24,000 bases of DNA, taken from Methanosarcinales archaeon (GTDB lineage Archaea > Halobacteriota > Methanosarcinia > Methanosarcinales > Methanogasteraceae). Below are positions 347-22,933 of the stretch, one piece after another (the stretch's first letter is position 1; each line of letters opens with the position of its first letter). The translations under genes and the position numbers were made by a program. Location of the stretch: contig JAUWHQ010000049.1 in NCBI GenBank assembly GCA_030605805.1, positions 6,863 to 30,862 of the forward strand, in the 5' to 3' direction. Below the pieces are notes generated by a model that was not told the DNA's origin, made no database searches, and saw only the letters and a program-made list of their open reading frames with translations.

Positions 347-1612
347 ATGAGAATTGATAGAATATTGGCTGGAATAGCCATGGGTTTGCTGCTGCTGGCG
401 TCGCCGGCATCCGCATCAGACTACACGCTCGAGATCTTCGGAAACGCAAACGAGGACGACACGATCAACATGCAGGATGTGACCTACACCGAACTGATCA
501 TCCTCGAATACAGAGACAGAACAGAACTGTCGGACGCCAAGTACGACGACAAGATCAACATGCAGGACGTGACGCAGATCGAGCTTGTCATTCTCGGGAA
601 GGAGAAGGAGATAACGCTCATAGATACGGCTGAAAAGATCGTGACTGTGAATAAACCACTGACAAGAATCATTCCCACCTATCCGCAAGCCATTGAGACG
701 TTGCGGTCGCTCAAGGTGCCGAAGGATACCATAGTCGGGATAGGTACATGGCCCACCCCTCTGGATCCGGTCTTCTTCGGAGAGTTCAGTGATACGCCAT
801 GCATCGGAACCGGATGGAATCCCGATGTGGAGGTGATACTGGAACTGGATCCGGATGCTGTCATCCTCTTCGGGATCGGGCGTGTCGATCTTGATCCGGT
901 CCAGGATGTGCTGGAAGTGGCAGGAATAACGGTGCTTCGTTTCAATCTCCAGACGCTGGACATTCATCGAACCGAAGTGGAGAAGCTTGGATATGTCTTT
1001 GGAAAGCGGGACGAAGCTGAAGAGTACCTTGGCTGGCGTGCAGACATTCTGGATTCGATCGAAGAGAGTGTTGCGGGACTCTCCGAAGACGATAAACCGG
1101 ATGTATACTTTATGCCCTCTTTCAAGGACGGTCTTTACTACATCTATGGGCAGTATGCCTACATCGATATGGCGGGCGGCAGGGACGTCTTTGCCGATCA
1201 GCCCGGAAACTACATGTTTGTGGATCCTGAAGAGGTGATAACGCGAAACCCTGATATCATAGTCAGGGTGGCATCATGGGATGCTGGTGGTTATGGTGTT
1301 GCTGCGGGCGAGACCGCAGAGTTTGAAGCGATGAGAGATGAGATCATGAGCCAGCCCGAACTGGAGAATGTCAGGGCTGTGGATGATGGGGAAGTGTACA
1401 TAATCGCTGATCACTTTGTATCGTTCTTCGCAGCCAGCGGATGCAGACAGTTCGTCCAGATAGCGTATCAGGCGAAGTGGTTCCATCCCGAACTCTTCGA
1501 GGATCTGGATCCGGAGGCGATCCACCAGGAGTATCTGACCGAATATCAGGGACTGGACTATGACCTGAGTGAGAACGGCGTATTCGTGTATCCGCCGCTC
1601 GCGGAGAGTTGA
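347..1612 (+). CDS. Secreted ABC-importer substrate-binding protein (Peripla_BP_2 / FhuD-BtuF-like, metal-chelate type) with N-terminal dockerin-like module
   Basis: The signal peptide MRIDRILAGIAMGLLLLASPASA|SDY has no lipobox Cys. A duplicated EF-hand-like dockerin follows. The body shows typical class-III binding-protein blocks (RIIP..P.AIETLRSL...IVGI, LDPDAVILFG, AGITVL) and has no C-terminal TM segment. The SD site is strong. Confidence 0.85.
   Translation: MRIDRILAGIAMGLLLLASPASASDYTLEIFGNANEDDTINMQDVTYTELIILEYRDRTELSDAKYDDKINMQDVTQIELVILGKEKEITLIDTAEKIVTVNKPLTRIIPTYPQAIETLRSLKVPKDTIVGIGTWPTPLDPVFFGEFSDTPCIGTGWNPDVEVILELDPDAVILFGIGRVDLDPVQDVLEVAGITVLRFNLQTLDIHRTEVEKLGYVFGKRDEAEEYLGWRADILDSIEESVAGLSEDDKPDVYFMPSFKDGLYYIYGQYAYIDMAGGRDVFADQPGNYMFVDPEEVITRNPDIIVRVASWDAGGYGVAAGETAEFEAMRDEIMSQPELENVRAVDDGEVYIIADHFVSFFAASGCRQFVQIAYQAKWFHPELFEDLDPEAIHQEYLTEYQGLDYDLSENGVFVYPPLAES
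416..610 (+). other. Dockerin-like module (class A) of the first binding protein
   Basis: SDYTLEIFGNANEDDTINMQDVTYTELIILEYRDRTELSDAKYDDKINMQDVTQIELVILGKEKE contains two Ca-loop-plus-helix segments (N.N.DD.IN..D.....L.IL), as in type-I dockerins. Confidence 0.7.
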
Positions 1613-1641
1613 TTGGAACAAATAGAAAGGAAATGATAAAT

Positions 1642-2934
1642 ATGAGAGCAAGTATACGGGTTGGAATAACTATGACTTTGCTGCTGCTGGTGCTCCCAGC
1701 CGCGGCATCAGACTACACGCTTGGCGTCTTCGGCAATGCGAACGAGGACGACACAGTAAACATGCAGGATGTGACGTACACCGAACTGATCATCCTCGAA
1801 TACAGAGATAGAACTGAGCTTGCAGACGCCAAGTACGACGACAAGATCAACATGCAGGATGTGACGCAGATCGAGCTTGTCATTCTTGGAAAAGAGAAGG
1901 AGCTCACATTCGTGGACGGCTTCGGTGAAGCGATGACTGTCGAAAAGCCAGTGGAACGTATTGTCAGCGTATGGTGCACCAATAATGAACTGTTGAAGGT
2001 GCTTGACGCAACCGACAAGATCGTTGGCATAGACGCCGGCATGACCGGGAAGAGTACAACCCTCTTCCCAGAGATCAGTGCTCTGCCGGATTGCGGAGGC
2101 TGGCATGCACCAAATTTCGAGGCGATACTGAGCCAGCATCCTGACATGTACATCCCGTGGCTCATCACAACGGATGATCCAGAGTCCAGCTATGGCATCA
2201 TACGCAAGAGATTCCTGGAGGAGAAACTCGTAAGTGTTCCGGTTCTCTGCATCGACAATAGCGAATACCGCACAGGAGAGTACTTTGTGGAAGAACTGGA
2301 ACGGCTTGGATACATCCTTGATAGGCGAGACGAGTCTGAAGAGTTCACCGAGTTCTATAAAGAGTGCACGGATCAGGTCGCAGAGCAGACAGAGGGACTG
2401 ACCGATGATGAGAAGCCGAGGGTGTGGATCACATCGCTCTTCTTCTCAGGTGGCGAGGTGACAGGTTCGCCTTACGCTTACTCCATCTTTGACCCGGTCG
2501 ATCTCGCAGGTGCAAGAAACATAGCCGAGGGTCTGCCCGGGGGTATGAGGGTGGATCTTGAATGGGTGATTGAGCAGAATCCTGAGTACATATTCATACA
2601 GATATGGGCTGCCGGGAACAGAAAATCGCCTTATGCGCCAGATTACTCGATATCAACGGTAGAAGAACAGGTGAACACAGTCCTGAACTGTCCTGAACTC
2701 GCAAATGTGGATGCTGTGAAGAACGAGAGGGTCTACGTTGTGCAGTATTCACATTTCAGTAAAGGGACATCCCGGTGTTTATGCGTTGCCTACCTGGCAA
2801 AACTGCTCCACCCGGAACTATTCGAGGAGATGGATCCACAGGCGATGCATCAGGAGTATGTAGACCGATTCCTGGGCATGGATGTCAGCGTTGAGAGTGG
2901 TAATTTCCTGTATCCAGCGTTGGAGGAGAGTTGA
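1642..2934 (+). CDS. Second secreted ABC-importer substrate-binding protein (Peripla_BP_2-like) with the same N-terminal dockerin-like module
   Basis: The ORF opens at 1609, but ATG 1642 matches the paralog starts (MRASIRVGITMTLLLLVLPAAA|SDYTLGVFGNANEDD...) and the SD spacing. The dockerin at 1708-1902 is about 89% nucleotide-identical to 416-610 (about 21 mismatches in 195 nt by hand alignment). The binding domain is strongly diverged from gene 1. The C-terminal block LHPELFEEMDPQAMHQEY is shared. Confidence 0.85.
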   Translation: MRASIRVGITMTLLLLVLPAAASDYTLGVFGNANEDDTVNMQDVTYTELIILEYRDRTELADAKYDDKINMQDVTQIELVILGKEKELTFVDGFGEAMTVEKPVERIVSVWCTNNELLKVLDATDKIVGIDAGMTGKSTTLFPEISALPDCGGWHAPNFEAILSQHPDMYIPWLITTDDPESSYGIIRKRFLEEKLVSVPVLCIDNSEYRTGEYFVEELERLGYILDRRDESEEFTEFYKECTDQVAEQTEGLTDDEKPRVWITSLFFSGGEVTGSPYAYSIFDPVDLAGARNIAEGLPGGMRVDLEWVIEQNPEYIFIQIWAAGNRKSPYAPDYSISTVEEQVNTVLNCPELANVDAVKNERVYVVQYSHFSKGTSRCLCVAYLAKLLHPELFEEMDPQAMHQEYVDRFLGMDVSVESGNFLYPALEES

Positions 2935-2964
2935 TGGGAATAAAACCCTAAAGAGGTAATATAC

Positions 2965-3452
2965 ATGAGACTAACTACAATAGTGGTTGGAATAACCATG
3001 TCGTTGCTGCTGCTCGCACTGCCAGCAGCAGCGTCAGACTACACACCATACTTCTGGTCTGCATCCCGTTACTGTTATGGAAATCGTGGGACCTCAATGT
3101 GATGGGTGTAGGAGAGGAGACTGCAAAGAGCCTTGGTGTAAATGTCGAGCGGACCCGAATCGGTGGGATGATGCTTGCATCGTTCATCACCGCAGTTATT
3201 ATATGTTTCACCGGAATGATCGGGTTTATAGGTCTGGTTGCTCCGCATATCACCCGTATGTGCATCGGTGGAGATAACAGATTTGTACTCCCGGCTTCGG
3301 CACTCTTCGGGGCTGCTTTTCTGGTTGCAGTGGGTATCATCGCAAGAGAAGTCGTAGCACCGGTGATCATCCCCGTGGGGATCATCACATCCTTCGTGGG
3401 AGGTCCTCTCTTCCTTTATCTCATAATACGAAAGAAGAAGGAGTACTGGTGA
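2965..3452 (+). pseudogene. Chimeric remnant: leader, signal peptide and first 4 dockerin codons fused out of frame to the last quarter or so of a FecCD-type permease
   Basis: 2965-3044 encodes MRLTTIVVGITMSLLLLALPAAASDYT, preceded by AGAGG. From 3045 a different frame reads TILLVCIPLLLWKSWDLNVMGVGEETAKSLGVNVERTR...GGPLFLYLIIRKKKEYW, colinear with the C-terminus of 8847-10220. The 45-codon leader ORF stops at 3100-3102, overlapping the GTG/ATG of ORF 3099-3452. Confidence 0.8.
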
Positions 3453-3454
3453 AG

Positions 3455-3690: not shown

Positions 3691-3745
3691 GACCGCTTCC
3701 GATTCACTTATTATGACGGATATGACTCAAAAAGGAGGAAGAACA

Positions 3746-4174: not shown

Positions 4175-4175
4175 T

Positions 4176-5201: not shown

Positions 5202-5205
5202 GATC

Positions 5206-6394: not shown

Positions 6395-6396
6395 CG

Positions 6397-8266: not shown

Positions 8267-8842
8267 ATGGGAATGAATACAACATTGGTTGGAATAGCCC
8301 TGGCAATGCTCTTGCTGGCATTGCCCGCGGCTGCATCTGACTACACGCTCGGCATCTTCGGGAATGCAAACGAAGATGACACAATCAACATGCAGGATGT
8401 GACGTACACCGAGCTAATCATCCTCGAATACAGGGACAGAACAGAGCTTTCCGATGCAAAGTATGATGATAGGATCAACATGCAGGAGGTCGATGACTGG
8501 ATCTTCGATGACATCACAAAGACGTTCATCCTCGACGATGAGATGCGGAAGTTCTTCGAGGAGAACAACCCGTGGGCGCTCGAAGAGATCGGAAGAATGC
8601 TCCTTGAGGCTTATGAGCGAGGACTGTGGGATGCAGACCCTGAGGTGATCGACGGACTGAAGAACGCATACCTCGAGATGGAGGGCTGGATCGAGGAGCG
8701 CATGGGCGACGTGAAAGGCGACTTCCAGGGCGGATCGATCGATGTGATGACGATGGCGGATGTCGCCGGCTGGAAGGAGAAGGTCGAGAAGGTCCTGAAG
8801 ACCGGATCCGATATACGAGTCAGTCAAGGAGAGGTGACGTGA
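8267..8842 (+). CDS. Chimeric ORF: signal peptide plus 1.5 dockerin repeats fused in frame to a CobN / Mg-chelatase-H C-terminal tail
   Basis: Residues 1-75 (to nt 8491) are MGMNTTLVGIALAMLLLALPAAA|SDYTLGIFGNANEDDTINMQDV...DAKYDDRINMQEV. The remainder, DDEMRKFFEENNPWALEEIGRMLLEAYERGLWDADPEVIDGLKNAYLEMEGWIEE, matches the conserved extreme C-terminus of CobN/ChlH/BchH (..EMR..L.E.NP......FLEA..RG.W......I..L...Y.E.E..IE). Confidence 0.7.
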   Translation: MGMNTTLVGIALAMLLLALPAAASDYTLGIFGNANEDDTINMQDVTYTELIILEYRDRTELSDAKYDDRINMQEVDDWIFDDITKTFILDDEMRKFFEENNPWALEEIGRMLLEAYERGLWDADPEVIDGLKNAYLEMEGWIEERMGDVKGDFQGGSIDVMTMADVAGWKEKVEKVLKTGSDIRVSQGEVT

Positions 8843-8846: not shown

Positions 8847-10220
8847 ATGGCTACGGCAACGGGAGAAAGTCACACAGTAACCGCAGACGAGATCAGAGAG
8901 CAGTACAAGAAGTTCGTCGGAAGGAAGATATTCTTCATCTTCTTCTTCATAGCCCTGATCGTCGGAATAACAGGAGTCTCCACATCGCTCGGGTCTGCAG
9001 ACCTCACGGTCTGGGACTCTTATTCATCGATACTCAGAAAACCGTTCCCGAATACGTTCGAGTCAAAGTATATCTTCACATTGGACGATGTTCCTGGAAG
9101 CGATGGTGAGAGACTCAAACAATACCTCATAGATGAATACGGTATCGTCTGGGTGCAAAGTGCAGAGATCAGCAAATCCGCGGACGGTAAAATCACTATT
9201 ACCGGTGAAGGTGACAATAACGTCGAAATCATGCTTGATGAAAGGGATACGGAAAAAATGACCGTAAAAATCAGCGGTGATATAGATCCGGGTCACAGAG
9301 TCAACGATTTCAAAGTTAAAGAGGTGAACGGCGAGCTCCACATACACGAGTCGACATGGCTTGCAGATGTCTGCGTCTGGAATCTCAGGCTCCCCAGAAT
9401 CATCCTCGGCATCGTGGCAGGCATCGGTCTTGGACTTGCAGGTGCGGTGATGCAGGCGATACTCAGAAATCCGCTTGCAAGCCCGTACACGCTCGGAATC
9501 TCGTCAGGAGCGGGGTTCGGCGCTTCGCTTGCAATTCTCGCTGGTGCAGGCTTCGTCGGTGGGAAATATCTTATCATCGGAAACGCATTCGTATTCGCGC
9601 TGCTGGTTTCGTTTATCATCCTCGGATTATCGAGCCGCAAAGGCGCAACGCCTGAAACGATGATTCTCGCGGGTATTGCGATGATGTACCTATTCGGCGC
9701 GATGACAACAATTCTTCAGTACTTTGGCGAGGCAGAGGCTGTGAAGGAAGCTGTCTTCTGGATGGTTGGTGACCTCAACAGGGCATCGTGGTCCGTTGTG
9801 ACGATCGTGTCGGTTGTGATCGCTCTCTGCACCCCATACCTCCTGGCAAAGTCCTGGGACCTGAACGTGATGGGCGCAGGAGATGAGACTGCGAAGAGTC
9901 TTGGTGTGAATGTGAAGCGCACCCGGGTCACAACGATGATTGTCTCAACAGTAATGGTCGCAACCATCGTCTCTTTCACAGGCACGATCGGGTTCATCGG
10001 GCTCGTTGCCCCGCACATGACACGTCTGGCTATCGGAGGCGATAACAGGTACGTGCTTCCGGTTTCAGGTCTCTTAGGTGCGGTGATTCTCATCAGCGCA
10101 GACCTTGTGGCAAGAAGGATCATAGCTCCTGTAATCCTCCCTGTTGGAGCGGTGACCGCATTTATGGGAGCTCCACTCTTTCTTTACCTGATAATGAGAC
10201 GAAGGAGGGAATACTGGTGA
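8847..10220 (+). CDS. FecCD/BtuC-family ABC importer permease with a ~96-aa insertion in the first extracytoplasmic loop
   Basis: The C-terminal 330 aa or so are typical FecCD (WNLRLPRI, NPLASPYTLGISSGA, GDETAKSLGVNV, FIGLVAPH, EYW). 9066-9353 has no counterpart in the paralog 11002-11997. Confidence 0.85.
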   Translation: MATATGESHTVTADEIREQYKKFVGRKIFFIFFFIALIVGITGVSTSLGSADLTVWDSYSSILRKPFPNTFESKYIFTLDDVPGSDGERLKQYLIDEYGIVWVQSAEISKSADGKITITGEGDNNVEIMLDERDTEKMTVKISGDIDPGHRVNDFKVKEVNGELHIHESTWLADVCVWNLRLPRIILGIVAGIGLGLAGAVMQAILRNPLASPYTLGISSGAGFGASLAILAGAGFVGGKYLIIGNAFVFALLVSFIILGLSSRKGATPETMILAGIAMMYLFGAMTTILQYFGEAEAVKEAVFWMVGDLNRASWSVVTIVSVVIALCTPYLLAKSWDLNVMGAGDETAKSLGVNVKRTRVTTMIVSTVMVATIVSFTGTIGFIGLVAPHMTRLAIGGDNRYVLPVSGLLGAVILISADLVARRIIAPVILPVGAVTAFMGAPLFLYLIMRRRREYW

Positions 10221-10984: not shown

Positions 10985-11001
10985 TCGGGAGACTATAGAT
11001 C

Positions 11002-12511: not shown

Positions 12512-12787
12512 ATGAGAATAAATACAATATTGATTGGGATAATCATGCTGTTATCAACATTACCAGTGGCTGCGTCCGACTGCACACTCGAGATCTCCGG
12601 CAATGCCAACGAGGATGACACCATAGATATGCAGAATTTGACTCATACCAAATCCATCATCCTCGAATACGGAGATCAGACCCAAGCTCGGAGATGTAAA
12701 CAACGATGGCAGGATCACCACAGCAGACTCGCTGCTCGCACTCCGGATGGCTGCCGGGAGTGTGGCTCCGGACATGGAACGCGCTGA
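12512..12787 (+). CDS. Signal peptide plus half a class-A dockerin; apparently the frameshifted 5' end of the giant surface-protein gene
   Basis: MRINTILIGIIMLLSTLPVAA|SDCTLEISGNANEDDTIDMQNLTHTKSIILEYGDQT is homologous to the other leaders up to about 12680. Beyond that point this frame is noise, and the +1 frame reads KLGDVNNDGRITTADSLLALRMAAG. Confidence 0.6.
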   Translation: MRINTILIGIIMLLSTLPVAASDCTLEISGNANEDDTIDMQNLTHTKSIILEYGDQTQARRCKQRWQDHHSRLAARTPDGCRECGSGHGTR

Positions 12788-15700
12788 TGTGAATGCCGAT
12801 GGCAGGGTGAACTCGCTTGATGCGCTCATGATACTGATGATGGCAGAGAAGACGCAAGTGTGTGTCAATGCTCCGGAAGTTGTGTCTGGTACGTTTGAGG
12901 TCACGATCGACATCCACAATGTTGCTGATCTCGATTCCGGGCAGTTCGATCTCTCGTTTGATCCGGGTGTTGTAAACGTGACTGCGGTCTATGACGGAAA
13001 CATAGCCGGCAGACAGGTGCCGGTAGAGTCATGGAAGTTCATGGACGCAGGTACGATTCGCGTGCTCTTCAATACCATCGGTATCTGCGGGGTCAGCGGG
13101 TCCGGATATGTGGCAAGGATAGACTTTGAGGTAACCGGATCGCATGGGGATATTAGCGTTCTGGACTTATCGGATGTGGGGCTTGTTGATACGGGCGCAG
13201 GTGCGATACCAGCAGTCCGGATTGATGATGAGGTGACCATTGGAGAGCATACTCCGGTAAATCAGGTTCGCAACATAAACACTGGTGAAATCTTTTCCTC
13301 CATCAAGGACGCAATCAATGACTATGATACATCGGATGGGCATACAATCGAGGTCGGAGATGGTGTTTACCACGAGAACGTGAAAGTCACCAAATCCCTA
13401 ACGATTCGGTCTCTGAATGGGTCCGCTGATTGCATTATTCAGGGTGCAAGGCGACGTGAGCATGTCGTTACAGTAACCGCAGATTGTGTGAATGTGAGCG
13501 GTTTTACGGTGAATGGAGCAACATCCCGTAAAGCCGGGATATATCTTAATGCAGGTTACTGCAACGTTTCCACAAATAACTGTTCAAATAATTATATCGG
13601 CATCCACCTCGATGGTTCAAACAACAACATCATATCGGGCAATGACTGCTCAAACAACGGGGGTGAAGGTATCTACCTTGACGGTTCAAGCAACAACCGC
13701 GTATCAAGCAATAATTGCTCGAACAACAGGGGCGATGGCATCTACATCAGTGGTTCAAGCAACAACAAATTAACAGGCAATATCATGTTTGAAGGTGGGA
13801 TATTTATCGGGGGCGACTCACTGAGTGATTACACGCATGAGATAGACGAAACGAATACGGTGAACGGAAAACCAGTTTATTACCGGAAGGATATTGAATG
13901 TGGGAGAATCCCCGACGGAGCTGGTCAGGTAATACTTGTGAATTGCAGGGACGTTCTGGTTGAAAATCAAGAATTGAACAATGGGGGCGTTGGTGTAGAA
14001 GCGGTCTTCTCTTCAAATATCACAGTAAGAAACAACAATTGCTCGAACAACCGACATGATGGCATCTATTTCTTTCATTCAAGTAACAGCGCCATATTGG
14101 GCAATAATTGCTCGAACAACCGACATGATGGCATCGACCTCGATGGTTCAAGCGACAACAGCATATCAGGCAACAACTGCCCAAACAACCAACGCGGCAT
14201 CGACCTCGATGGTTCAAGCGACAACAGCATATCGAGCAATAATTGCTCGGATAACTGGGTTGGCATTGACCTCGATGGTTCAAGCAACAACAACATATCA
14301 GGCAACAACTGCTCAAACAACCAACGCGGCATCTATTTCTCTCATTCAAGCAACAACGCCATATTGGGCAATAATTGCTCGAACAACCACGGGGGTGGCA
14401 TCTGCCTCTATTGTTCCAGTAACAACGATATATCACGCAATAATTGCTCAGATGGTGGGGCTGGCATCCGTCTCTGGGGTTCAAGCAACAGCAAATTAAC
14501 AGGCAATATCATGTTTAAAGGTGGAATAGTTATTGAGGGTGGTTCACTGAGCGATTACGCGCATGAGATAGACAAAAGCAACATAGTGAACGGTAAGCCG
14601 GTTTATTACTGGAAGGATGTGGACGGGGGACGCATTCCAGATGGTGCCGGGCAGGTAATTCTCGTTGATTGCAGTAATGTTTTGGTTGAAGAGCAGAACT
14701 TAAACGATTTGGACACCGGTATAACAGTCGCTTTCTCTTCCTATCTTACTTTAAAAAACAACAACTGCTCAAATAACCGGGGTGGCATCCGCCTCTATGA
14801 ATCAGGTAACAACCGCATATCTGGCAACAATTGCTCAAACAACAACCAACGTGGCATCGACCTCGATGATTCAATCGACAACAGTATATCCGGTAATAAT
14901 TGCTCGAACAACCACTGGAATGGCATCAGCCTCGGTGGTTCAAGCAACAACCGTATATCGGACAATACTTGCTCAAACAACTGGAATGGCATCAGCCTAT
15001 ATGGTTCAAGCAACAACCGCATATCGGACAATACTTGCTCAAACAACGAGGGGGATGACGTCTGCCTCTGCAGTTCAAGCAACAGCAAATTAACAGGCAA
15101 TATCATGTTTGGGACTGGAATAATCATTAGTGGCAGATCACTTAGCTGTTACATGCATGAGATCGACAAAACGAACACGGTGAACGGAAAACCGGTTTAT
15201 TACTGGAATGATATCAAATCCGGGAGAATTCCCGAAGGAGCGGGTCAGGTAATACTTGTGAATTGCAAGGATGTTCTGGTTGAAGATCAGGAATTGAACA
15301 ATGTACGCGTTGGTATAGACGTGGTATTCTCTTCATATATTGTGATACGAAACAATGATTGCTCAAAAAACAAGCATGTGGGCATCCGCCTCTATGAATC
15401 CTGCAACAACGCGGTATCAAGCAATAATTGCTCAAACAGCCGGAATGGTATCTATCTCGAGGAATCATACAGCAATGCTATATTCCTTAACAATTTTATA
15501 AACAACACCGATAACACCTATTTCCGTTCCTCCACAAACATCTGGAACTCAACAGCAAGGATAAACTACACCTACAAAGACATGCCGTTCACGAACTATT
15601 TAGGCAACTACTGGGATGATTACGAAGGAAGCGATTTGGGCGGGGATGGAATTGGCAATTCGCCCCATGATATATGTCCGGACGTGGATAATTTCCCGTT

Positions 15701-18700
15701 GATTGCGCCTTTTGAGAATTACTCTGCACAAACAGAGAATATGATGATAGTCGATGTCAATGCTCCGGAAATCATATACGGCAGATTCGATGCAACGATC
15801 GACGTCCACCATGCTATCAATCTCGATTCCGGGCAGTTCGATCTCTCATTCAATTCAAGCATCGTGAACGTGACCGGTGTCAATGCAGGAAACATAAACA
15901 GCACAACGGTACCAATCGCCCGCTGGTATTTCACGAATGCGGACACGGTCAAGGTGATCTTCAAACTGGATGGTGGGGGTGGGGTCAGCGGATCAGGATA
16001 TGTGGCAAGGATAGACTTTGCGACGGTAGGACCGCAGGGTTATTCATGCGTTCTGGATATATCAAACGGAAAGCTTGTTGATACGGGTGGAGTGGAGCTA
16101 TCAGCTGTCTGGTTTGATTGCGAGGTTGAGGCACCCATCGGAGTGCCGGTTATCGTTAACGCTCCTCCGGTTGTATCTGGTGCATTTGAGGTTATGATTG
16201 ATACCGAGAACGTGACTGATCTGGACGGCGGGCAGTTCGAGCTCTGGTTCGATTCGGATGTTGTGACTGTTGAAGATGTGGGGGTGGGAAGTATAGGCGA
16301 TACAGAGATACCAGTTATGTGGAGTTTTAGGAATGCAGATACTATTATGGTTGCCTTCAATCTTCCTGGTCTCCGTGGGGTCAGCGGGTCCGGATATGTG
16401 GCGAAGATAAGCTTCGCGATAAAGGGATCGCAGGGTGACATGAGCGCCCTTGATATATCCCATGGGCTGCTTGTTAACAACCGTGCGGATAAGATACCAG
16501 CGATCTGGATTGATGATGAGGTGACCATTGGAGAGCATATTCCAACGAATCGTGTCCATAACATCAACACCGGCGAAGATTTCTCATTCATCCAGGGTGC
16601 AATAGACGATCCTGATACATCGGACGGGCATATAATCGAGGTCGAGGATGGCGTTTATCGTGAGAATGTAAAGGTCACCAAATCCCTGACGATCCGGTCT
16701 CTAAATGGGTCTGCAGATTGTATTATTCAGGATGCGGGAAGTGACAATGTCGTTAAGATAACCGCGGATCATGTCAATATCAGTGGTTTTACGGCGATGA
16801 GACGATTAGTAGGAACCGCATTCTATAGCGCAGGAATCTACCTCGGTGCAAGTTACTGCAACGTTTCCAACAACACTTGCTCAAACAATGGTATCGGTAT
16901 CCGCCTCGATGGTTCGAGCAACAACCAGATATCAAGCAACGATTGCTCGAAGAACGAGCGGGCTGGCATCCGCCTCCATAGATCATGCAACAATAGCATA
17001 TCGAACAATAATTGCTCAAACAACAGCCGCAATGGCATCGACTTCTATTATTCGGGCAACAACCGGATATCAAACAACGATTGCTCAAACAATGAGCAGG
17101 CTGGCATCCGCCTCTATTATTCACGCAACAACAGATTAACAGGTAACGCCATGTTTGAGAATGGAATAGTCATCCGTGGTGATTCACCGGACGATTACAC
17201 GCATGAGATCGACGAAACGAACGTAGTGAACGGAAAACCGGTTTACTACTGGAAGGATATCGAATCCGGGAGAATTCCTGAAGGGGCGGGACAGGTAATA
17301 CTTGCGAATTGCATGGGCATACTGGTTGAGAACCAGGAATTAAATAATGCAAGCGTTGGTGTGGAAGTAGCTTTCTCTTCAAATGTCACTGTAAGAGACA
17401 ATACTTGCTCAAACAACCATGATGTGGGCATCCACTTCTTTTATTCAAGCAACAGCAGCATATCAAGCAACGATTGCCAGAATAACTGGAATGATGGAAT
17501 CTACTTCCATGGTTTGAGCAGAAGCAGCGTATCAAACAACACTTGCTCAAACAGCAACTCCACCGGTGTCCACTCTGGCATATACGGCTGGATGCTCCCG
17601 GACAGCGACTCGGATGGGATCCACCTCAATGATTCAAGCGACAACAGCATATCGGACAATAATTGCTCGAACAATGAAGGAACTGGCATCAACATCATTG
17701 ATTCAAGCAACAACAGCATATCAAACAACATCTGCTCAAACAACCATGGTGGCATCTGCCTCAGCGGATCAAACAACAACATATCGAACAATAGTTGCTC
17801 GAACAACCACGAGGGCATCTGCCTCGGTGATTCAGACAACAGCAGATTAACAGGCAACATCATGTCCGAGAACGGAATAGTCATCCGGAGCGGTTCACCG
17901 GGCGGTTACACGTATGAGATCGACGAAACGAACACGGTGAATGGAAAACCGGTTTATTACTGGAAGGATGTGAACGGGAAAAGCATTCCAGATGGTGCCG
18001 GGCAGGTGATACTTGTGAATTGCGAGGGTGTTCTGGTCGAGAATCAGGAATTGAATAATGCAAGCGTCGGCGTAGAAGTAGCTTTCTCTTCAAATGTCAC
18101 CGTAAGAGGGAATAATTGCTCAAACAACCATGATGTGGGCATCCACTTCTGGTGTTCAAACGACAACGCCATATCGGGCAATAATTGCTCAAACAACGGG
18201 CGTGATGGCATATTCCTCTATGATTCAAGCAACAACAGCATATCGGGCAATAACTGCTCAAACAACCAACGTGGCATCGACCTCGATGATTCAAGCAACA
18301 ACCGCATAGCAGGCAATAATTGCACGAACAATGAGTGGACTGGCATCCACCTTGGTGGTTCATATAACAACGTATCAGGCAATAATTGCTCGAATAATCA
18401 TGGTGATGGCATCGGTTTATCCGGATCAGGCAACAGCGTATCGAGCAATGATTGCTCGACGAACCATGACGATGGCATCCACCTCTATGGTTCGGACACC
18501 GCCTGCATATCTAACAACGATTGCTCGACGAACTGCCGGGCGGGTATCCGCCTCTATCGATCAAACGACAACAGCATATTAAGCAACACCTGCTCAAACA
18601 ACCGGGACGGCGTCCTCATCTTTTTCAATGACTCATACAGCAATGTTATATATCTAAATAATTTTATAAATAATTCTGATAACATTGCCACCCAGTCCTC

Positions 18701-19283
18701 CACGACCTCGAACATCTGGAGCTCTCCATCAAAGATAGAGTACGCCTACAGGGGCAAGAGCTTCACGAACTATTTAGGCAACTACTGGAGCGATTACGAT
18801 GGGAGCGATGCCGATTATGACGGGATCGGGGATGAACCGTACGACATCAACCCGGACTGCCCGGACCGGGACGATTATCCACTCATGGAAAGGTTTGAGA
18901 GTTACGTTGCTCCGGAATCGATTTACGTCTCTGACACTTACTCCACGATACAGCAGGCGGTTGATAACGCTACAAAAAGAGCTATCATTACTGACAGGGA
19001 TGGAACATACGTAGAGAACGTAGAAGTGAACAAACGCCTGACGATTCAATCGGAGAATGGCAGCGAAGAAACGATGGTAATCGCCGAGAATTTAAATGAG
19101 CATCTCTTCGAGGTGACTGCGGCTTATACAACCATCAACGAGTTCACGGTTGCTGTAAAGCACGTTTCAGGAAAGGAGGTTGCAACGTATTATGGAGATA
19201 TCAGAGACCCTGATCGTCATGTGGTCCGTGACATAAAGAAATGGAAGAAGGTTGTCCCTTCGAGTGATGCTGATGCCGTATAG
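12747..19283 (+). CDS. Giant cell-surface protein: canonical dockerin, three cohesin-like modules and two long NosD/PbH1 parallel beta-helix arrays. The frame is open from 12642, and the true N-terminus is probably 12512 via a 1-nt frameshift
   Basis: The ORF is 2178 aa. The dockerin GDVNNDGRITTADSLLAL...ADVNADGRVNSLDALMIL spans the annotated Met. There are three cohesin-like modules. About 35 rungs of 22 aa follow the pattern (S/G)NNCSNN...GI.L..SSNN.I. The NosD-type connector TNTVNGKPVYYWKD...IP.GAGQVILVNC..VLVENQELNN occurs six times, and the cap NIW.S......Y......NYLGNYW.DY.G.D twice. Confidence 0.85.
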   Translation: MAAGSVAPDMERADVNADGRVNSLDALMILMMAEKTQVCVNAPEVVSGTFEVTIDIHNVADLDSGQFDLSFDPGVVNVTAVYDGNIAGRQVPVESWKFMDAGTIRVLFNTIGICGVSGSGYVARIDFEVTGSHGDISVLDLSDVGLVDTGAGAIPAVRIDDEVTIGEHTPVNQVRNINTGEIFSSIKDAINDYDTSDGHTIEVGDGVYHENVKVTKSLTIRSLNGSADCIIQGARRREHVVTVTADCVNVSGFTVNGATSRKAGIYLNAGYCNVSTNNCSNNYIGIHLDGSNNNIISGNDCSNNGGEGIYLDGSSNNRVSSNNCSNNRGDGIYISGSSNNKLTGNIMFEGGIFIGGDSLSDYTHEIDETNTVNGKPVYYRKDIECGRIPDGAGQVILVNCRDVLVENQELNNGGVGVEAVFSSNITVRNNNCSNNRHDGIYFFHSSNSAILGNNCSNNRHDGIDLDGSSDNSISGNNCPNNQRGIDLDGSSDNSISSNNCSDNWVGIDLDGSSNNNISGNNCSNNQRGIYFSHSSNNAILGNNCSNNHGGGICLYCSSNNDISRNNCSDGGAGIRLWGSSNSKLTGNIMFKGGIVIEGGSLSDYAHEIDKSNIVNGKPVYYWKDVDGGRIPDGAGQVILVDCSNVLVEEQNLNDLDTGITVAFSSYLTLKNNNCSNNRGGIRLYESGNNRISGNNCSNNNQRGIDLDDSIDNSISGNNCSNNHWNGISLGGSSNNRISDNTCSNNWNGISLYGSSNNRISDNTCSNNEGDDVCLCSSSNSKLTGNIMFGTGIIISGRSLSCYMHEIDKTNTVNGKPVYYWNDIKSGRIPEGAGQVILVNCKDVLVEDQELNNVRVGIDVVFSSYIVIRNNDCSKNKHVGIRLYESCNNAVSSNNCSNSRNGIYLEESYSNAIFLNNFINNTDNTYFRSSTNIWNSTARINYTYKDMPFTNYLGNYWDDYEGSDLGGDGIGNSPHDICPDVDNFPLIAPFENYSAQTENMMIVDVNAPEIIYGRFDATIDVHHAINLDSGQFDLSFNSSIVNVTGVNAGNINSTTVPIARWYFTNADTVKVIFKLDGGGGVSGSGYVARIDFATVGPQGYSCVLDISNGKLVDTGGVELSAVWFDCEVEAPIGVPVIVNAPPVVSGAFEVMIDTENVTDLDGGQFELWFDSDVVTVEDVGVGSIGDTEIPVMWSFRNADTIMVAFNLPGLRGVSGSGYVAKISFAIKGSQGDMSALDISHGLLVNNRADKIPAIWIDDEVTIGEHIPTNRVHNINTGEDFSFIQGAIDDPDTSDGHIIEVEDGVYRENVKVTKSLTIRSLNGSADCIIQDAGSDNVVKITADHVNISGFTAMRRLVGTAFYSAGIYLGASYCNVSNNTCSNNGIGIRLDGSSNNQISSNDCSKNERAGIRLHRSCNNSISNNNCSNNSRNGIDFYYSGNNRISNNDCSNNEQAGIRLYYSRNNRLTGNAMFENGIVIRGDSPDDYTHEIDETNVVNGKPVYYWKDIESGRIPEGAGQVILANCMGILVENQELNNASVGVEVAFSSNVTVRDNTCSNNHDVGIHFFYSSNSSISSNDCQNNWNDGIYFHGLSRSSVSNNTCSNSNSTGVHSGIYGWMLPDSDSDGIHLNDSSDNSISDNNCSNNEGTGINIIDSSNNSISNNICSNNHGGICLSGSNNNISNNSCSNNHEGICLGDSDNSRLTGNIMSENGIVIRSGSPGGYTYEIDETNTVNGKPVYYWKDVNGKSIPDGAGQVILVNCEGVLVENQELNNASVGVEVAFSSNVTVRGNNCSNNHDVGIHFWCSNDNAISGNNCSNNGRDGIFLYDSSNNSISGNNCSNNQRGIDLDDSSNNRIAGNNCTNNEWTGIHLGGSYNNVSGNNCSNNHGDGIGLSGSGNSVSSNDCSTNHDDGIHLYGSDTACISNNDCSTNCRAGIRLYRSNDNSILSNTCSNNRDGVLIFFNDSYSNVIYLNNFINNSDNIATQSSTTSNIWSSPSKIEYAYRGKSFTNYLGNYWSDYDGSDADYDGIGDEPYDINPDCPDRDDYPLMERFESYVAPESIYVSDTYSTIQQAVDNATKRAIITDRDGTYVENVEVNKRLTIQSENGSEETMVIAENLNEHLFEVTAAYTTINEFTVAVKHVSGKEVATYYGDIRDPDRHVVRDIKKWKKVVPSSDADAV
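12858..13247 (+). other. Cohesin-like module 1 of the giant protein
   Basis: VCVNAPEVVSGTFEVTIDIHNVADLDSGQFDLSFDPGVVNVTAVYDGNIAGRQVPVESWKFMDAGTIRVLFNTIGICGVSGSGYVARIDFEVTGSHGDISVLDLS... Confidence 0.7.
13250..15720 (+). repeat. Beta-helix array 1: tandem 66-nt (22-aa) PbH1 coding repeats interrupted by three connector modules
   Basis: ggcaataattgctcgaacaac...ggcatc...ctc...tcaagcaacaac units repeat with 66-nt periodicity. I count about 17 Cys-bearing rungs. Confidence 0.8.
15750..16130 (+). other. Cohesin-like module 2 of the giant protein
   Basis: VDVNAPEIIYGRFDATIDVHHAINLDSGQFDLSFNSSIVNVTGVNAGNINSTTVPIARWYFTNADTVKVIFKLDGGGGVSGSGYVARIDFATVG... Confidence 0.7.
16143..16535 (+). other. Cohesin-like module 3 of the giant protein
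   Basis: VPVIVNAPPVVSGAFEVMIDTENVTDLDGGQFELWFDSDVVTVEDVGVGSIGDTEIPVMWSFRNADTIMVAFNLPGLRGVSGSGYVAKISFAIKG... Confidence 0.7.
16540..18900 (+). repeat. Beta-helix array 2, an internal duplicate of array 1
   Basis: The order matches 13250-15720: an entry segment (NINTGEDFSFIQGAIDD..DGHIIEVEDGVYRENVKVTKSLTIRSLNGSADCIIQ), about 18 Cys-bearing rungs, three connectors and a cap. Confidence 0.8.
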
Positions 19284-19902
19284 CGAAACCTATCAAGTAC
19301 TCATCAGCGCGACAGAACTATCGTTTGGTCTGCTCAGTAACACGGTACCGTTCATGGTGCTCGGTGTGGTCTTCGCCGAGTTCATCGTTGCTTTGAGGGT
19401 TGTGAACAAGATCGCATACATAGCGAGACCGATCTCAAACTTTGCCAACCTGAGAGATGAGTGTGGAGCCAGTTTTATGACCGCATTCATATCTCCGACA
19501 TCCGCCAATTCGATGCTTGCCTCTTTTTACAACGATAAACTGATCGAGAAGAAGGAGCTCTTCGTAGCGTCCATGATGACCTCCTTTCCAGCGATTGTGA
19601 TGCACTGGCGTGCACTGCTTCCAGTGCTTATACCTCTCATGGGTATGACCGGACTCATCCACTTCGGTATACTGATGCTCATCGGATTCATCAAGACGTT
19701 CTTCATCATGCTCGCGGGCAGGTTTCTTCTGGAGAAGAGGGATCATAAGCCTGTAGATCGCCCGACAGAGGGGCGTCCGGAGTTAAAAGAAGCTTTCAAG
19801 ATCAGTTTGCAAGCGTCTAAGGGTACCGTCAAGCGAATACTGTGCATGACCATCCCGATCTTCTTTGTTGTCTGTGTCCTGATAACACTTCGGAGCCTTT
19901 GA
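19252..19902 (+). CDS. N-terminal part of a nucleoside-recognition (Gate/FeoB-C-like) domain membrane protein, interrupted by a frameshift
   Basis: The product is polytopic and hydrophobic. ISPTSANSMLASFYNDKLIEKKELFVASMMTSFPAIV resembles the Gate-domain core. The frame stops at 19900-19902 while the +1 frame stays open from 19886. The start (19252, 19267 or 19273) overlaps the end of the giant gene. Confidence 0.5.
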   Translation: MSLRVMLMPYSETYQVLISATELSFGLLSNTVPFMVLGVVFAEFIVALRVVNKIAYIARPISNFANLRDECGASFMTAFISPTSANSMLASFYNDKLIEKKELFVASMMTSFPAIVMHWRALLPVLIPLMGMTGLIHFGILMLIGFIKTFFIMLAGRFLLEKRDHKPVDRPTEGRPELKEAFKISLQASKGTVKRILCMTIPIFFVVCVLITLRSL

Positions 19903-20313: not shown

Positions 20314-21180
20314 ATGACGAGGATGAACCCTATCACAAAGAAGATATTATCAATCGCACTGCTTATGTTGCTCGTAATCGGTGCGGCAGCAGACGATGAG
20401 GTTGAGATCGACCCTGACGCAGATGTCAATGTCACTATCAACGCACCCGAATATGTGTCAGAAGATACGTTCGAGGTCACGATGGATGTTACGGAGGTTA
20501 CCGACTTTGATTCGGGGCAGTTTGATCTCATGTTTGATCCGGACGTCATAAATGTGGTGGATGTCACGGATGGAAACATAGAAGATATCAAAATATCGGT
20601 AGACATGTGGCGTCACATGGATGATGACCGGGTCAGGGTGATCTTCAATGCCGATGCAGGTGCTGAGGGGGTAAGCGGATACGGATATGTAGCTAAGATT
20701 GCATTTGAGGTTGTGGGGGATATCGGAGATACCAGTGCCATTGACATGTCTGATGAGTTTGAGAGGGGGCTCTACTATTTAGAGCCGAGAGAGGGTTACG
20801 ATACGGTAGGCCCAGCTGATCTCCCTGCAAACTGGTTCGGCACCACCGTAACCATCGGCACCGCACCAGCGGTGTCAGATGAGATCCCGACGCCCGCGCC
20901 CGCCGAGACACCAGCGGTCAATGCAACACCGGACTTGGAATCGACATCAGCACCGACGCCGACCGAAACGCCAATAGAGACATCGCTTGAGCTATCATCC
21001 AACCCACTCGGAATGACAGCGCGTGCGGAGAGCGCACCTGCCGCGGCAGTGCCGGGCGCATCATCAGAATCATCAGAAGACGGCGGATTGCCGGATATAC
21101 CAGCAGCGTGCGATCTCATCCCGATCTACTCGCTTGTCGGACTGCTCGCCTTAATTTATGCATTAACACAATTCAAATGA
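20314..21180 (+). CDS. Membrane-anchored cohesin protein: signal peptide, one cohesin-like module, Pro/Thr/Ser stalk and C-terminal hydrophobic anchor
   Basis: The N-terminal hydrophobic segment is KKILSIALLMLLVIGAAA. The cohesin lies at about 20425-20862 (VTINAPEYVSEDTFEVTMDVTEVTDFDSGQFDLMFDPDVINVVDV...GVSGYGYVAKIAFEVVGDIGDTSAIDMS). The stalk reads PTPAPAETPAVNATPDLESTSAPTPTETP, and the C-terminus is IPIYSLVGLLALIYALTQFK. Confidence 0.8.
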   Translation: MTRMNPITKKILSIALLMLLVIGAAADDEVEIDPDADVNVTINAPEYVSEDTFEVTMDVTEVTDFDSGQFDLMFDPDVINVVDVTDGNIEDIKISVDMWRHMDDDRVRVIFNADAGAEGVSGYGYVAKIAFEVVGDIGDTSAIDMSDEFERGLYYLEPREGYDTVGPADLPANWFGTTVTIGTAPAVSDEIPTPAPAETPAVNATPDLESTSAPTPTETPIETSLELSSNPLGMTARAESAPAAAVPGASSESSEDGGLPDIPAACDLIPIYSLVGLLALIYALTQFK

Positions 21181-21187
21181 GGATATT

Positions 21188-22933
21188 ATGTACGCACGAA
21201 ACAACAACCTGAAACGGCTCGGAATGATCGCTGCGATATCGATCATCACGATTGCGTTTGCAGCGCAGGCATCGGCGGCAAATGACCCTGAAGTCAGCGT
21301 CTGCGTCCCGGATTGGACGACCACCGCGTTCGATGCGATCATAAAGATGGAGTATTTTGATGATGGTATAAAGGATCTGGAAGGGCAGTTTGATCTCTCT
21401 TTTGACACAGATGTTGTGGAGCTAAAAAGCGTCGAGGGCATGGAGATTAAAGATAAAAATGCAATAATAGAATGGGATTTTGTTGATGGTTCGGATAATA
21501 AGAAGATCTGGGTAGAATTCGTAATACCTGATGATACGGGTACTCGAACTTACGGAGAATTTGTAAAGATACAATTCAATTTAGTGGGAGATACGGGCGA
21601 TAGCAGCCTGCTGGACATAACAGGTGGGACTCTCGCATACACAGATGGAACCGCAGTGCCATCCGTAAAATGGACCGATGACACGGTTAACATAGGCAGT
21701 TTCGATGTTACGGTCAAGGCTCCCGAATCTGTCTCTACTGACACGTTCGACGCCGACATCGATATCACTGATGTCGTAGATCTTGAGTCAGGGAGTTTTA
21801 AGTTGTCGTTCAATTCGAGCGTGGTAAACGTGACCGATGTCAAACCTGGAAAAATCGGTGGAACAGAGATACCAATAGATATGTGGTGTTTCATGAAAAA
21901 CAACACAATCAGAGTGCTCTTCAATCTTCCTAGCGCAGAAAATGGTGTAAGCGGCTCCGGAACTATAGCAACAATAAGTTTCGCTGTGATCGGGGAAGAT
22001 GGTGACAGCAGCGTATTGGACATAGATAAATATCTAAAAGAGCATTTCACTAACCCAGAGACTGACAGACTGCCCATAAACTGGATCGACGCCACTGTAA
22101 CCATCGATAGTGCAGCGCCTCCGCCACCAAAAAAAACCGATACTTATGTTTATGTGAAAAACCTTGATGACGATAAATTAAATGTATTTCTCTTCATCGA
22201 TGGAGTTTTCAAGGTCAAAAGTTCAATCTTTTCCGTTTCAGCAGGCTCTACAAAAAAGTACGCCAATTATAAGTTGGAGGAAGGATTGCACAGTTTCAGA
22301 ATCGAATGGTACGATCTCGACACTGAAGAACGGTACGAAAAGATCGAAGAACACAACATAACAGGCGAAACGGCTCTTATTATTATCAACACAGTGGAGC
22401 ATACCGATGAGGATACCAGGATCAGCGCCCGTGTTTACGTGAAGAACAATGATGACGATTGTCTGGACGTCTATCTGTATATCGACGATGTATACAAGAA
22501 ATACGAACTCATCGAGTTTGATGATACCTGCGAGTATGAAAAGGAGGGATACGAGTTTGATGAAGATGGAGTGCACACTTTCAAGATAAAATGGCGTGAC
22601 CCGGATACAGAGGAGACGTATGAGAAGCTCACCAGAGAATACATAAAAACCGAGCAGTCGATAACGATGTATGTCGATCCACATACTGAAGATGATCTCA
22701 TCACCACCGCATCTATTCCCACATCATCCTCCGTCCCCCAGTCGTCCTCATCCACGTCAAGCCCTGCACCGGCTACATTGACCACGCCGATCACCGTGCT
22801 GCACACAGACCCGATCTCAGCCGGAGGCAACGACAACGGCGCAGGACAATCGCAATCGCAGTACCACCACCTGTATACGCTCGTGGGGGCTATCGCCATA
22901 CTCGTTGCAGCAACGCAGATCAGAAGAGATTGA
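21188..22933 (+). CDS. Membrane-anchored double-cohesin protein with two copies of an unrecognised ~94-aa acidic domain, a Ser/Thr/Pro stalk and a C-terminal anchor
   Basis: The signal peptide is LGMIAAISIITIAFAAQASA. The cohesin-like modules lie at 21290-21700 (divergent) and 21701-22111 (VKAPESVSTDTFDADIDITDVVDLESGSFKLSFNSSVVNVTDV...GVSGSGTIATISFAVIG). Tandem domains occupy 22136-22696. The C-terminus is HLYTLVGAIAILVAATQIRRD. Confidence 0.8.
   Translation: MYARNNNLKRLGMIAAISIITIAFAAQASAANDPEVSVCVPDWTTTAFDAIIKMEYFDDGIKDLEGQFDLSFDTDVVELKSVEGMEIKDKNAIIEWDFVDGSDNKKIWVEFVIPDDTGTRTYGEFVKIQFNLVGDTGDSSLLDITGGTLAYTDGTAVPSVKWTDDTVNIGSFDVTVKAPESVSTDTFDADIDITDVVDLESGSFKLSFNSSVVNVTDVKPGKIGGTEIPIDMWCFMKNNTIRVLFNLPSAENGVSGSGTIATISFAVIGEDGDSSVLDIDKYLKEHFTNPETDRLPINWIDATVTIDSAAPPPPKKTDTYVYVKNLDDDKLNVFLFIDGVFKVKSSIFSVSAGSTKKYANYKLEEGLHSFRIEWYDLDTEERYEKIEEHNITGETALIIINTVEHTDEDTRISARVYVKNNDDDCLDVYLYIDDVYKKYELIEFDDTCEYEKEGYEFDEDGVHTFKIKWRDPDTEETYEKLTREYIKTEQSITMYVDPHTEDDLITTASIPTSSSVPQSSSSTSSPAPATLTTPITVLHTDPISAGGNDNGAGQSQSQYHHLYTLVGAIAILVAATQIRRD
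22136..22696 (+). repeat. Two tandem copies of a ~94-aa domain (coding repeat) in the double-cohesin protein
   Basis: Copy 1 reads TDTYVYVKNLDDDKLNVFLFIDGVFK...GLHSFRIEWYDLDTEERYEKIEEHNITGETALIII. Copy 2 reads ARVYVKNNDDDCLDVYLYIDDVYK...GVHTFKIKWRDPDTEETYEKLTREYIKTEQSITMYV. Confidence 0.7.

Follow-up and report, generated by a model that had tools for sequence, protein, structure and literature searches.

A candidate cohesin-dockerin tether for the binding proteins of an ABC importer in a Methanosarcinales archaeon

A 24,000-nucleotide stretch of contig JAUWHQ010000049.1 from a Methanosarcinales archaeon (referred to here as the window) carries the genes of a putative ATP-binding cassette (ABC) importer together with genes for proteins that bear dockerin or cohesin modules. 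To judge from its relatives (ANME-2c-GOS, the ANME-2 cluster, Ca. Methanogasteraceae and GoM-Arc1), the source is an uncultured, methane-cycling archaeon that resembles ANME-2. All the genes of interest lie on the + strand. They begin with two importer binding proteins, SBP1 (347..1612) and SBP2 (1642..2934), continue with an importer core of permeases and ATPase (8847-11997) and a giant open reading frame (ORF; 12747..19283), and end with two anchored cohesin proteins, CohA (20314..21180) and CohB (21188..22933). In this report, we describe these genes and their relatives and consider whether the binding proteins might be retained at the cell surface through their dockerins.

In both binding proteins, a 65-residue duplicated module that reads SDYTL..GNANEDDTINMQDVTYTELIIL..DAKYDDKINMQDVTQIELVIL begins right at the end of a cleavable signal peptide, and the AxA-type ends of the two signal peptides (…ASA and …AAA, respectively) directly precede SDYTL. 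The signal peptide of SBP1 occupies 347-415, and the module that follows it (416-610) scores 140 bits with a dockerin family profile; the corresponding module of SBP2 lies at 1708-1902, also behind a signal peptide. The bodies of both proteins are recognized by the Pfam model Peripla_BP_2, with 77 bits for SBP1 and 64 bits for the divergent body of SBP2. A preliminary description of this DNA, made from the sequence without database searches, had placed the module after the signal peptides of two intact metal-chelate binding proteins, and this assignment is borne out. SBP1 and SBP2 are 43% identical overall, and their alignment reveals near-identical dockerins and bodies of visibly much lower identity, which is the pattern to be expected if different ligand specificities must fit one socket.

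No other means of anchoring is apparent in these two proteins, as had been proposed. On inspection of sequence and hydropathy, neither has a Cys in or near its signal peptide, and neither has a C-terminal hydrophobic segment. Among 92 full-length dockerin-bearing relatives, none has a C-terminal segment resembling a transmembrane helix, and four match a loose lipobox pattern. We also searched for homologues with the ligand-binding body of SBP1 alone, and considered the closest 120 (46-93% identity). The dockerin is present in 114 of them. The remaining six comprise three that are truncated at the N terminus, two with another EF-hand-like N-terminal segment, and one, P0434, with a classical lipobox (…LAGVAGC) in place of the dockerin. 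Orthologues anchored by other means would speak against a tether of this kind, and they amount to this single lipobox protein, as against 114 with a dockerin. The nearest NCBIfam family of SBP1 is that of the PGF-CTERM-anchored binding proteins (TIGR04281), whose score is well below cutoff. Given this neighbor and the lipobox of P0434, it appears that a lipid, a sorting signal or a dockerin can anchor one kind of protein in different lineages.

The dockerin is nearly universal in this clade of binding proteins, including members from Methanothrix/Methanosaeta bins and from bins of ANME-1, one of the lineages of anaerobic methanotrophic archaea (ANME). Dockerin-bearing Peripla_BP_2 homologues in Methanosaeta/Methanothrix metagenome-assembled genomes (MAGs) are annotated as corrinoid- or cobalamin-binding, and a truncated homologue is present in a Methanophagales (ANME-1) MAG (P0339, P0425 and P0450). 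The fusion of dockerin and binding protein is therefore not limited to ANME-2.

Profile comparisons, the predicted fold and relatives that pass the Pfam threshold identify the N-terminal module as a genuine, though divergent, dockerin of the type-I-like kind. We refer to it as the INMQDVT class, after a motif found in both of its repeats. The suggested check with the Pfam model Dockerin_1 (PF00404) did not confirm the module in the binding proteins of the window, which the model fails to match, although the dockerin identity itself survives by other routes. When a profile built from close relatives was compared with all sequences of the Protein Data Bank (PDB), dockerins took the first five ranks; with a broader family profile of 51 sequences, all 21 matches were dockerins (best E-value 7.9e-6), and both repeats were aligned. 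An exhaustive hidden Markov model search of 1.84 billion cluster representatives (E ≤ 1e-3) returned a family of 1218 members, most of which are binding proteins of 400-460 amino acids with the module at the N terminus. In some members, however, it lies at the C terminus of unrelated proteins. Because it occurs at either end and on unrelated cargo, the module can be regarded as portable.

Ten proteins chosen from 145 family-profile matches were scanned with Pfam. Over the stretch matched by the module profile, protein P0236 (27.5 bits) and binding proteins of the Opp type (23.5-32.8 bits) exceed the Dockerin_1 threshold of 22.9 bits, and the window module's own profile matches these above-threshold relatives at E-values of about 1e-25. 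An AlphaFold2 model of the module (predicted local distance difference test 90.6, predicted template modeling score 0.79) has predicted helices at module residues 19-29 and 49-59. In a Foldseek search of the PDB with this model, the top 33 matches were all dockerins, the best approximately 30 of them with template modeling (TM) scores of 0.6-0.8, and the leading matches superimposed with root-mean-square deviations of 1.4-2.6 Å over 54-65 columns.

The module consists of two tandem segments of about 22 residues, each composed of a 12-residue EF-hand-like calcium loop and a helix, as is characteristic of dockerins. In the calcium loops, NANEDDTINMQD and DAKYDDKINMQD, Asp or Asn is expected at positions 1, 3, 5, 9 and 12. 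The loop of repeat 1 reads N-A-N-E-D-D-T-I-N-M-Q-D and that of repeat 2 reads D-A-K-Y-D-D-K-I-N-M-Q-D, so that the only deviation, in this clade, is the Lys at position 3 of loop 2 (DAKYDD); the wider family has the canonical DANYDGKID..D. Since both repeats carry INMQDVT, each has Met-Gln at positions 10-11, the putative sites of recognition. The module is thus internally symmetric, like the symmetric dockerins of type I, and by this analogy may have a dual binding mode, with two possible orientations. The recognition-face residues are more conserved than the cargo.

A second dockerin of the window, located at 12684..12857 beside the giant ORF, is of the canonical type (KLGDVNNDGRITTADSLLAL / ADVNADGRVNSLDALMIL; Dockerin_1, 46 bits) and has Thr-Ala and Ser-Leu at positions 10-11. 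Established structural work on cohesin-dockerin pairs makes it likely, by analogy, that the window contains two specificity classes of dockerin. Both classes also occur within one protein, P0229 (1690 amino acids), which has a canonical dockerin and a cohesin in its N-terminal part and a dockerin of the INMQDVT family near its C terminus.

The six cohesin-like modules of the window, three in the giant ORF, one in CohA and two in CohB, had been proposed on the basis of shared motifs, and they are confirmed as cohesins. Their scores with the Pfam Cohesin model (PF00963; gathering threshold 24.1 bits) are 38.4, 16.9 and 23.2 bits in the giant ORF, 41.6 bits in CohA, and 18.8 and 39.4 bits in CohB; three of the six therefore lie above the threshold. 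The first giant-ORF cohesin is 35-59% identical to the other five, and a joint profile of all six matches the solved cohesins 4UMS, 1G1K and 2VN5_A.

CohA consists of a signal peptide, a cohesin (approximately 20404-20868), a Ser/Thr/Pro linker and a C-terminal anchor (21097-21177). In CohB, a signal peptide is followed by cohesins at 21272-21703 and 21704-22087, by two domains of about 95 amino acids (22088-22687), and then by a Ser-rich linker and a hydrophobic tail (approximately 22865-22930). The proposal that the small cohesin proteins have a stalk and a hydrophobic C-terminal anchor agrees with their Ser/Thr/Pro-rich linkers, with hydropathy analysis, and with a tail motif common to both proteins, Y[ST]LVG..A...A.TQ[FI][KR]. 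Approximately 100 CohA orthologues of about 280 amino acids (36-77% identity) all have the same C-terminal tail, in which a Tyr, a Gly, a Leu, an Ala and a Tyr are invariant across 35 orthologues. Neither CohA nor CohB matches the NCBIfam sorting-signal models (PGF-CTERM, PEF-CTERM and VPXXXP-CTERM). The tail may thus be a plain membrane anchor or an undescribed signal of the archaeosortase type. The 95-residue domain of CohB, present in two copies, has no significant Pfam match. In nearly all related loci, the CohB-like proteins combine this domain with cohesins; it may be a stalk or a spacer for the surface layer (S-layer).

The importer core consists of a FecCD/BtuC-type permease (8847..10220; Pfam FecCD, 304 bits), an ABC ATPase (10217..10984; Pfam ABC_tran) and a second FecCD-type permease (11002..11997; 244 bits), and is followed on its 3' side by an ATPase relic (12033-12269). 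Together with the Peripla_BP_2 binding proteins, these genes constitute a type II ABC importer resembling BtuCDF, FhuBCD and FecBCDE. Matches of the importer proteins to NCBIfam equivalog models all fall far below cutoff. The best of these weak matches are to corrinoid/B12, heme and ferric-siderophore systems, among them BtuC for the first permease and a corrinoid ABC transporter ATPase for the ATPase. The ligand is presumably some metal chelate, for which a corrinoid-like compound is the best weak match. The first permease also carries a hydrophilic insertion of about 100 residues after its first transmembrane helix (residues ~62-168; approximately 9030-9350 in the window), which may be an extracytoplasmic domain. 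This insertion is lacking in the second permease and in the shorter homologues of loci L001, L006 and L009, and is apparently present in the permease of L003, which matches from end to end (453 amino acids).

To place this arrangement in context, we compared 23 related loci from ANME-2c, the ANME-2 cluster, GoM-Arc1 and other Methanosarcinales bins, which were annotated by means of window-derived profiles. In 12 loci, an ABC ATPase gene is immediately followed by a CohA-like gene; in 16, the gene immediately after CohA is CohB-like (cohesin plus the repeat domain of about 95 amino acids); and in approximately 20 ANME-2/GoM-Arc1 loci, cohesin genes are linked to the importer/dockerin neighborhood. 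Such a survey of related genomes had been called for in the preliminary description, and it reveals that dockerin-bearing binding proteins, importer genes and anchored cohesin proteins form a conserved cluster.

The importers found 5' of CohA and CohB belong to two unrelated classes. In the FecCD/Peripla_BP_2 class, CobN or nitrogenase-like genes (Oxidored_nitro and NifH-like) are frequent neighbors in the relatives, as is a gene for a protein that combines a canonical dockerin, cohesin and NosD. In the Opp/Nik-like class, an SBP_bac_5 binding protein is encoded with two permeases and two ATPases, and its INMQDVT-type dockerin is N-terminal or C-terminal. Two transporter families have thus converged on one arrangement, in which the binding protein bears the dockerin and the ATPase genes are followed by the CohA-CohB pair. 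This gene order is the strongest new support for tethering. In one protein, P0315 (678 amino acids), an anchored cohesin protein reads through into a dockerin-bearing binding protein, which reflects either direct adjacency of the two genes or a real fusion.

With moderate confidence, we propose that the locus encodes a non-covalent retention system that holds the binding proteins of an ABC importer at the cell surface. SBP1 and SBP2 would be exported with a cleavable signal peptide, whose removal would leave a calcium-type dockerin as the new N terminus. This dockerin would plug, presumably in a calcium-dependent manner, into a cohesin of a protein whose hydrophobic C-terminal tail fixes it in the membrane and whose flexible Ser/Thr/Pro stalk raises it. 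The candidate sockets are CohA and/or CohB, whose genes close the importer cluster on its 3' side. In a cell that has no outer membrane, and for a protein that has no lipid anchor of its own, such a tether would keep the binding protein close to the FecCD/ATPase translocator. Paralogues that differ in their ligand pockets but have one near-identical dockerin could then bring several specificities to the same sockets. In relatives, the canonical-dockerin NosD/beta-helix proteins with one to three cohesins could serve as adaptors that multiply the number of sockets. Comparative evidence supports the tethering interpretation well.

Several points weigh against this interpretation. Pfam gives the module of the window's binding proteins no match at all, even at E ≤ 10, and three of the six cohesins (16.9, 18.8 and 23.2 bits) score under the Pfam threshold. 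The Lys in loop 2 could impair calcium binding by that loop. With a stalk of approximately 80-90 residues and a dockerin-cohesin joint beneath it, the binding protein may be positioned well away from the membrane, and delivery to the permease is an assumption of the model. The cognate partner could also be one of the many other cohesins encoded in these archaeal genomes, and the conserved synteny could reflect co-regulation of surface proteins instead of physical pairing. Finally, the adaptor gene is broken in the window, with a 5' frameshift and a 3' truncation.

This adaptor is the giant ORF, which extends for 2178 amino acids from the first in-frame ATG, at 12747. Its order is half a dockerin, cohesin 1 (12855-13256), NosD/beta-helix arrays, cohesins 2 (15741-16136) and 3 (16143-16535), and more NosD arrays; the Pfam scores are 551 bits for NosD and 448 bits for Beta_helix, each over 11 stretches. 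At its 3' end, the gene breaks off within a NosD unit and runs into a fragment of CobN (amino acids 2119-2165). The giant protein had been described as carrying a canonical dockerin together with three cohesins. The domains are indeed there, but the first dockerin repeat lies upstream of the ATG at 12747, which falls in mid-dockerin and is preceded by no earlier in-frame start.

Nor can the gene, in its assembled form, be taken as encoding one intact protein. Three-frame translation and alignment to L003 reveal a signal peptide and a degenerate first repeat of the INMQDVT class at 12512..12683, in a frame other than that of the domains downstream. The window and L003 share 94% DNA identity, with a single 1-nucleotide indel, an extra A at 12669, and because of this A, the remainder of the giant gene is read in a different frame from the signal peptide and first dockerin repeat. 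In L003, the N terminus comprises a signal peptide, a degenerate INMQDVT-type repeat and a canonical dockerin in one frame. Homologues of the gene are intact in L003, L005 and L020, where they encode a signal peptide, a dockerin, one to three cohesins and NosD/beta-helix arrays. The assembled gene is probably a pseudogene, unless an assembly or sequencing error has occurred at 12669.

The state of this gene bears on the model that the preliminary description had favored, a three-tier hierarchy of anchor, adaptor and cargo. Under that model, the binding proteins would dock mainly on multi-cohesin adaptor or NosD proteins that reach into the S-layer or past it, with CohA and CohB anchoring the scaffold, and the whole would serve, like an antenna or a reservoir, to concentrate metal chelates that are scarce or to share them among the members of a consortium. 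Two dockerin classes and several cohesin subtypes are consistent with such a capture scaffold, as are the proteins with a canonical dockerin and one to three cohesins (with or without NosD) that are encoded beside operons in L003, L005, L007, L009, L016, L017 and L020. Scaffoldin-like proteins with up to five cohesins are described by Chadwick et al. (PMC9012536). Of the parts that such an architecture requires, the anchored cohesin proteins and the dockerin cargo are intact in the window, but the adaptor, intact in L003, L005 and L020, is frameshifted and truncated here, or is affected by an assembly error; for this reason, we do not take the three-tier hierarchy as working in this genome. 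Moreover, five operons (L010, L013, L014, L015 and L018) include the binding protein, CohA and CohB with no adaptor gene within the retrieved stretch. We consider a capture scaffold unlikely as the primary role, and, given both the defective adaptor of the window and the operons that lack one in the retrieved stretch, we favor a tether in which the binding proteins dock, at its core, directly to CohA and/or CohB.

A dockerin much like that of SBP1 and SBP2 is also found outside archaea. Three proteins, P0228, P0230 and P0236 (loci L024:317-1147, L025:1942-3054 and L026:8001-8840, respectively), have a bacterial lipoprotein signal (…FGC), an N-terminal domain of no known type and a C-terminal INMQDVT dockerin with approximately 75-80% protein identity to that of ANME. 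Within these lipoproteins, the dockerin is far better conserved than the remainder. The contigs of P0228 and P0230 appear Bacteroidota-like, as they carry type IX secretion system genes (Por_Secre_tail) and, in one case, also SurA; the contig of P0236 carries only the lipoprotein gene. The dockerin DNA of the lipoproteins is 69-78% identical to the dockerin DNA of the window, the guanine-plus-cytosine (GC) content of which is 51%. We rejected the explanation that the bacterial contigs are chimeric, because the GC content of their dockerin DNA (33-37%) matches that of the contigs (31-36%). Its composition appears to have drifted to that of the bacterial host. One rather doubtful extension of these observations is that CohA and CohB, encoded where importer operons end, provide a general plug-in dock for many interchangeable binding proteins, which bacteria exploit to attach themselves to the surface of ANME cells or to compete for the sockets of their transporters, so that cohesin-dockerin pairs would be used between domains of life. 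Even so, this side finding may be more novel than the tethering idea itself.

The same lipoproteins could be cited for a role in cell-cell or matrix adhesion or in partner recognition, in which the dockerin on the binding proteins would be incidental or the binding proteins would double as adhesins, since a near-identical dockerin on foreign proteins implies that the sockets may accept them. The literature on ANME also leans toward adhesion or syntrophy, and notes high expression in both partners. However, adhesion leaves unexplained why a dockerin is found on nearly every member of two unrelated families of binding proteins that lack another anchor, and why CohA and CohB lie directly behind importer ATPase genes. 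Also, dockerin-bearing homologues occur in MAGs of Methanothrix/Methanosaeta, which are not known to form consortia of the ANME type. We therefore regard adhesion as an improbable main function. It is more improbable still that the module serves in calcium binding or folding, lacks a cohesin partner and lies near cohesin genes by coincidence, for although the window module fails Pfam entirely and its second loop is non-canonical, profile, fold and transitive evidence all indicate a dockerin, the module is portable, its recognition-face residues are more conserved than its cargo, and cohesin genes are linked to it in approximately 20 loci.

The sequence that encodes the module has been repeatedly rearranged within the window. 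A 5' cassette that consists of the Shine-Dalgarno region, signal peptide and dockerin is present five times (300-640, 1595-1930, 2918-3044, 8220-8490 and 12465-12683), with 76-85% DNA identity. The first two cassettes lead into the binding proteins, and the other three are followed by the 3' half of a FecCD gene, by a CobN tail and by the giant gene, respectively. As the preliminary description indicated, three of the copies are rearranged; according to BLASTN searches and alignment, they lie at 2965-3044, 8267-8490 and 12512-12683. The first of these retains only the Shine-Dalgarno sequence and signal peptide (76% identity over 80 nucleotides to the 5' end of SBP1) and runs, in a different frame, into what is left of a FecCD permease gene, namely its 3' half (3099-3452); the two together form a relic at 2965..3452, delineated by BLASTN, alignment and translation. 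The second encodes a signal peptide and one and a half dockerin repeats, in frame with the last approximately 110 residues of a CobN chelatase. The resulting short ORF (8267..8842) matches positions 1035-1089 of the CobN-Mg_chel model of Pfam and positions 1-53 of the dockerin profile.

A signal peptide and partial dockerin fused to the last approximately 50-110 residues of CobN also occur in P0022 and at L001:7797-8048. In at least two other assemblies, the CobN-tail fusion likewise precedes the FecCD gene, and L003 has a full CobN of 1251 amino acids at this position. The possibility that the rearranged cassettes are assembly artifacts was rejected, since the CobN-tail fusion and the junction with the canonical dockerin recur in independent assemblies (P0022, L001 and L003). 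In public assemblies, many homologues of the cassette are partial or frameshifted fragments at the ends of contigs, and the sequences suggest that the cassette repeat both drives recombination and breaks assemblies.

Other genes of the window are related less directly to the importer. Between the relic at 2965..3452 and the short CobN-tail ORF lies a block of cytoplasmic genes with an ABC-2 transporter (3653-8071), which, by Pfam, encodes a PNPOx-like protein, two methyltransferases, a cupin, and an ABC-2 ATPase and permease. This block, in which one methyltransferase is a BchU-like O-methyltransferase, is partly kept beside the cohesin cluster of L007 (1-2306). Two nitrogenase-like sets, each with two Oxidored_nitro genes and a NifH-like gene according to Pfam, lie between a block of this type and CohA in L001 (357-7585); the same two sets are probably present in L007 (2584-9854), as judged only from ORF sizes that match. 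These neighbors hint at a link with tetrapyrrole or metal-cofactor chemistry. A small membrane protein is encoded at 19252..19902, between the giant ORF and CohA, with homologues in the same neighborhood of L019, L020 and L023; its Pfam match to Gate (nucleoside-recognition), at 22.5 bits, is below threshold.

The proposed tether resembles the bacterial cellulosome (Acetivibrio/Clostridium thermocellum; structures 1OHZ, 2CCL, 2VN5 and 4FL4) in its duplicated calcium-loop/helix dockerin (TM-score up to approximately 0.8), in the symmetry of that dockerin, in its beta-sandwich cohesins (matched by profile), and in its combination of an anchoring protein, a possible adaptor and cargo. It differs in its archaeal host and in its cargo, which consists of transporter binding proteins instead of glycoside hydrolases. 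Pfam scans of the window ORFs detected no glycoside hydrolase or carbohydrate-binding module families. Also, the anchor here is a C-terminal hydrophobic tail, whereas cellulosomes use S-layer homology domains or sortase, and the FecCD-type binding proteins carry their dockerin at the N terminus, immediately following the signal peptide. The locus would therefore be cellulosome-like in the working of its scaffold, but it is not a cellulosome.

A precedent in an archaeal host and a non-cellulosomal context is provided by the cohesin and dockerin modules of Archaeoglobus fulgidus, for which we know of no reported link to transporters. According to the discussion of this work in PMC9012536, the A. 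fulgidus pairs bind specifically in vitro (Bayer et al. 1999; Haimovitz et al. 2008), and multi-cohesin scaffoldins were unknown in archaea at that time. Binding proteins with a lipobox or PGF-CTERM signal (TIGR04281) belong to the same protein family and answer the same need for membrane retention, but retention by a dockerin would be non-covalent, reversible and modular, with the anchor provided as a separate, shared gene product.

Cohesins and dockerins of ANME have been noted repeatedly. Timmers et al. (2017; PMC5244752) found many such domains in ANME-1 and ANME-2a and guessed at adhesion, and Murali et al. (2023; PMC10553843) reported that both ANME-2c and its partner express cohesin/dockerin genes at high levels. 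Chadwick et al. (2022; PMC9012536) state that common ANME dockerin proteins are ABC-transporter binding proteins of the NikA/OppA and TroA types, describe proteins with a dockerin and up to five cohesins in ANME-2a, -2c and -1, and call for experiments. A full-text literature search returned nothing more specific than these three papers. The novelty claimed for the arrangement in the preliminary description must thus be qualified: dockerin-bearing binding proteins and scaffoldin-like proteins were already published in 2022, although no example is known to have been characterized by experiment.

The present locus and the catalogue of Chadwick et al. share the ANME-2/Methanosarcinales lineage, dockerin-bearing substrate-binding proteins and scaffoldin-like proteins. 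Their work is a survey of domain annotations, and the passages compared here do not include the importer-CohA-CohB order, the INMQDVT class missed by Pfam or the anchor motif. New in this report are the identification of the Pfam-negative module as a dockerin, the importer-CohA-CohB order in two transporter classes, the near-universal dockerin in a clade of binding proteins, and the defective adaptor of this window. Since the idea itself was published in 2022, what the locus contributes is a clean case for testing it and a subclass of dockerin that had been missed, and not a new principle.

In archaea that lack an outer membrane, the retention of binding proteins is usually ascribed to lipid or transmembrane anchors. 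If our interpretation is true, a reversible protein-protein tether would represent a different solution to this problem, in which many binding proteins share a few sockets. Such a tether would allow turnover or exchange of binding proteins, and possibly their placement across the S-layer space. The conserved importer-CohA-CohB order provides defined candidate pairs, and the tether would supply a concrete job for part of the excess of cohesins and dockerins in ANME, which is usually discussed only in terms of adhesion.

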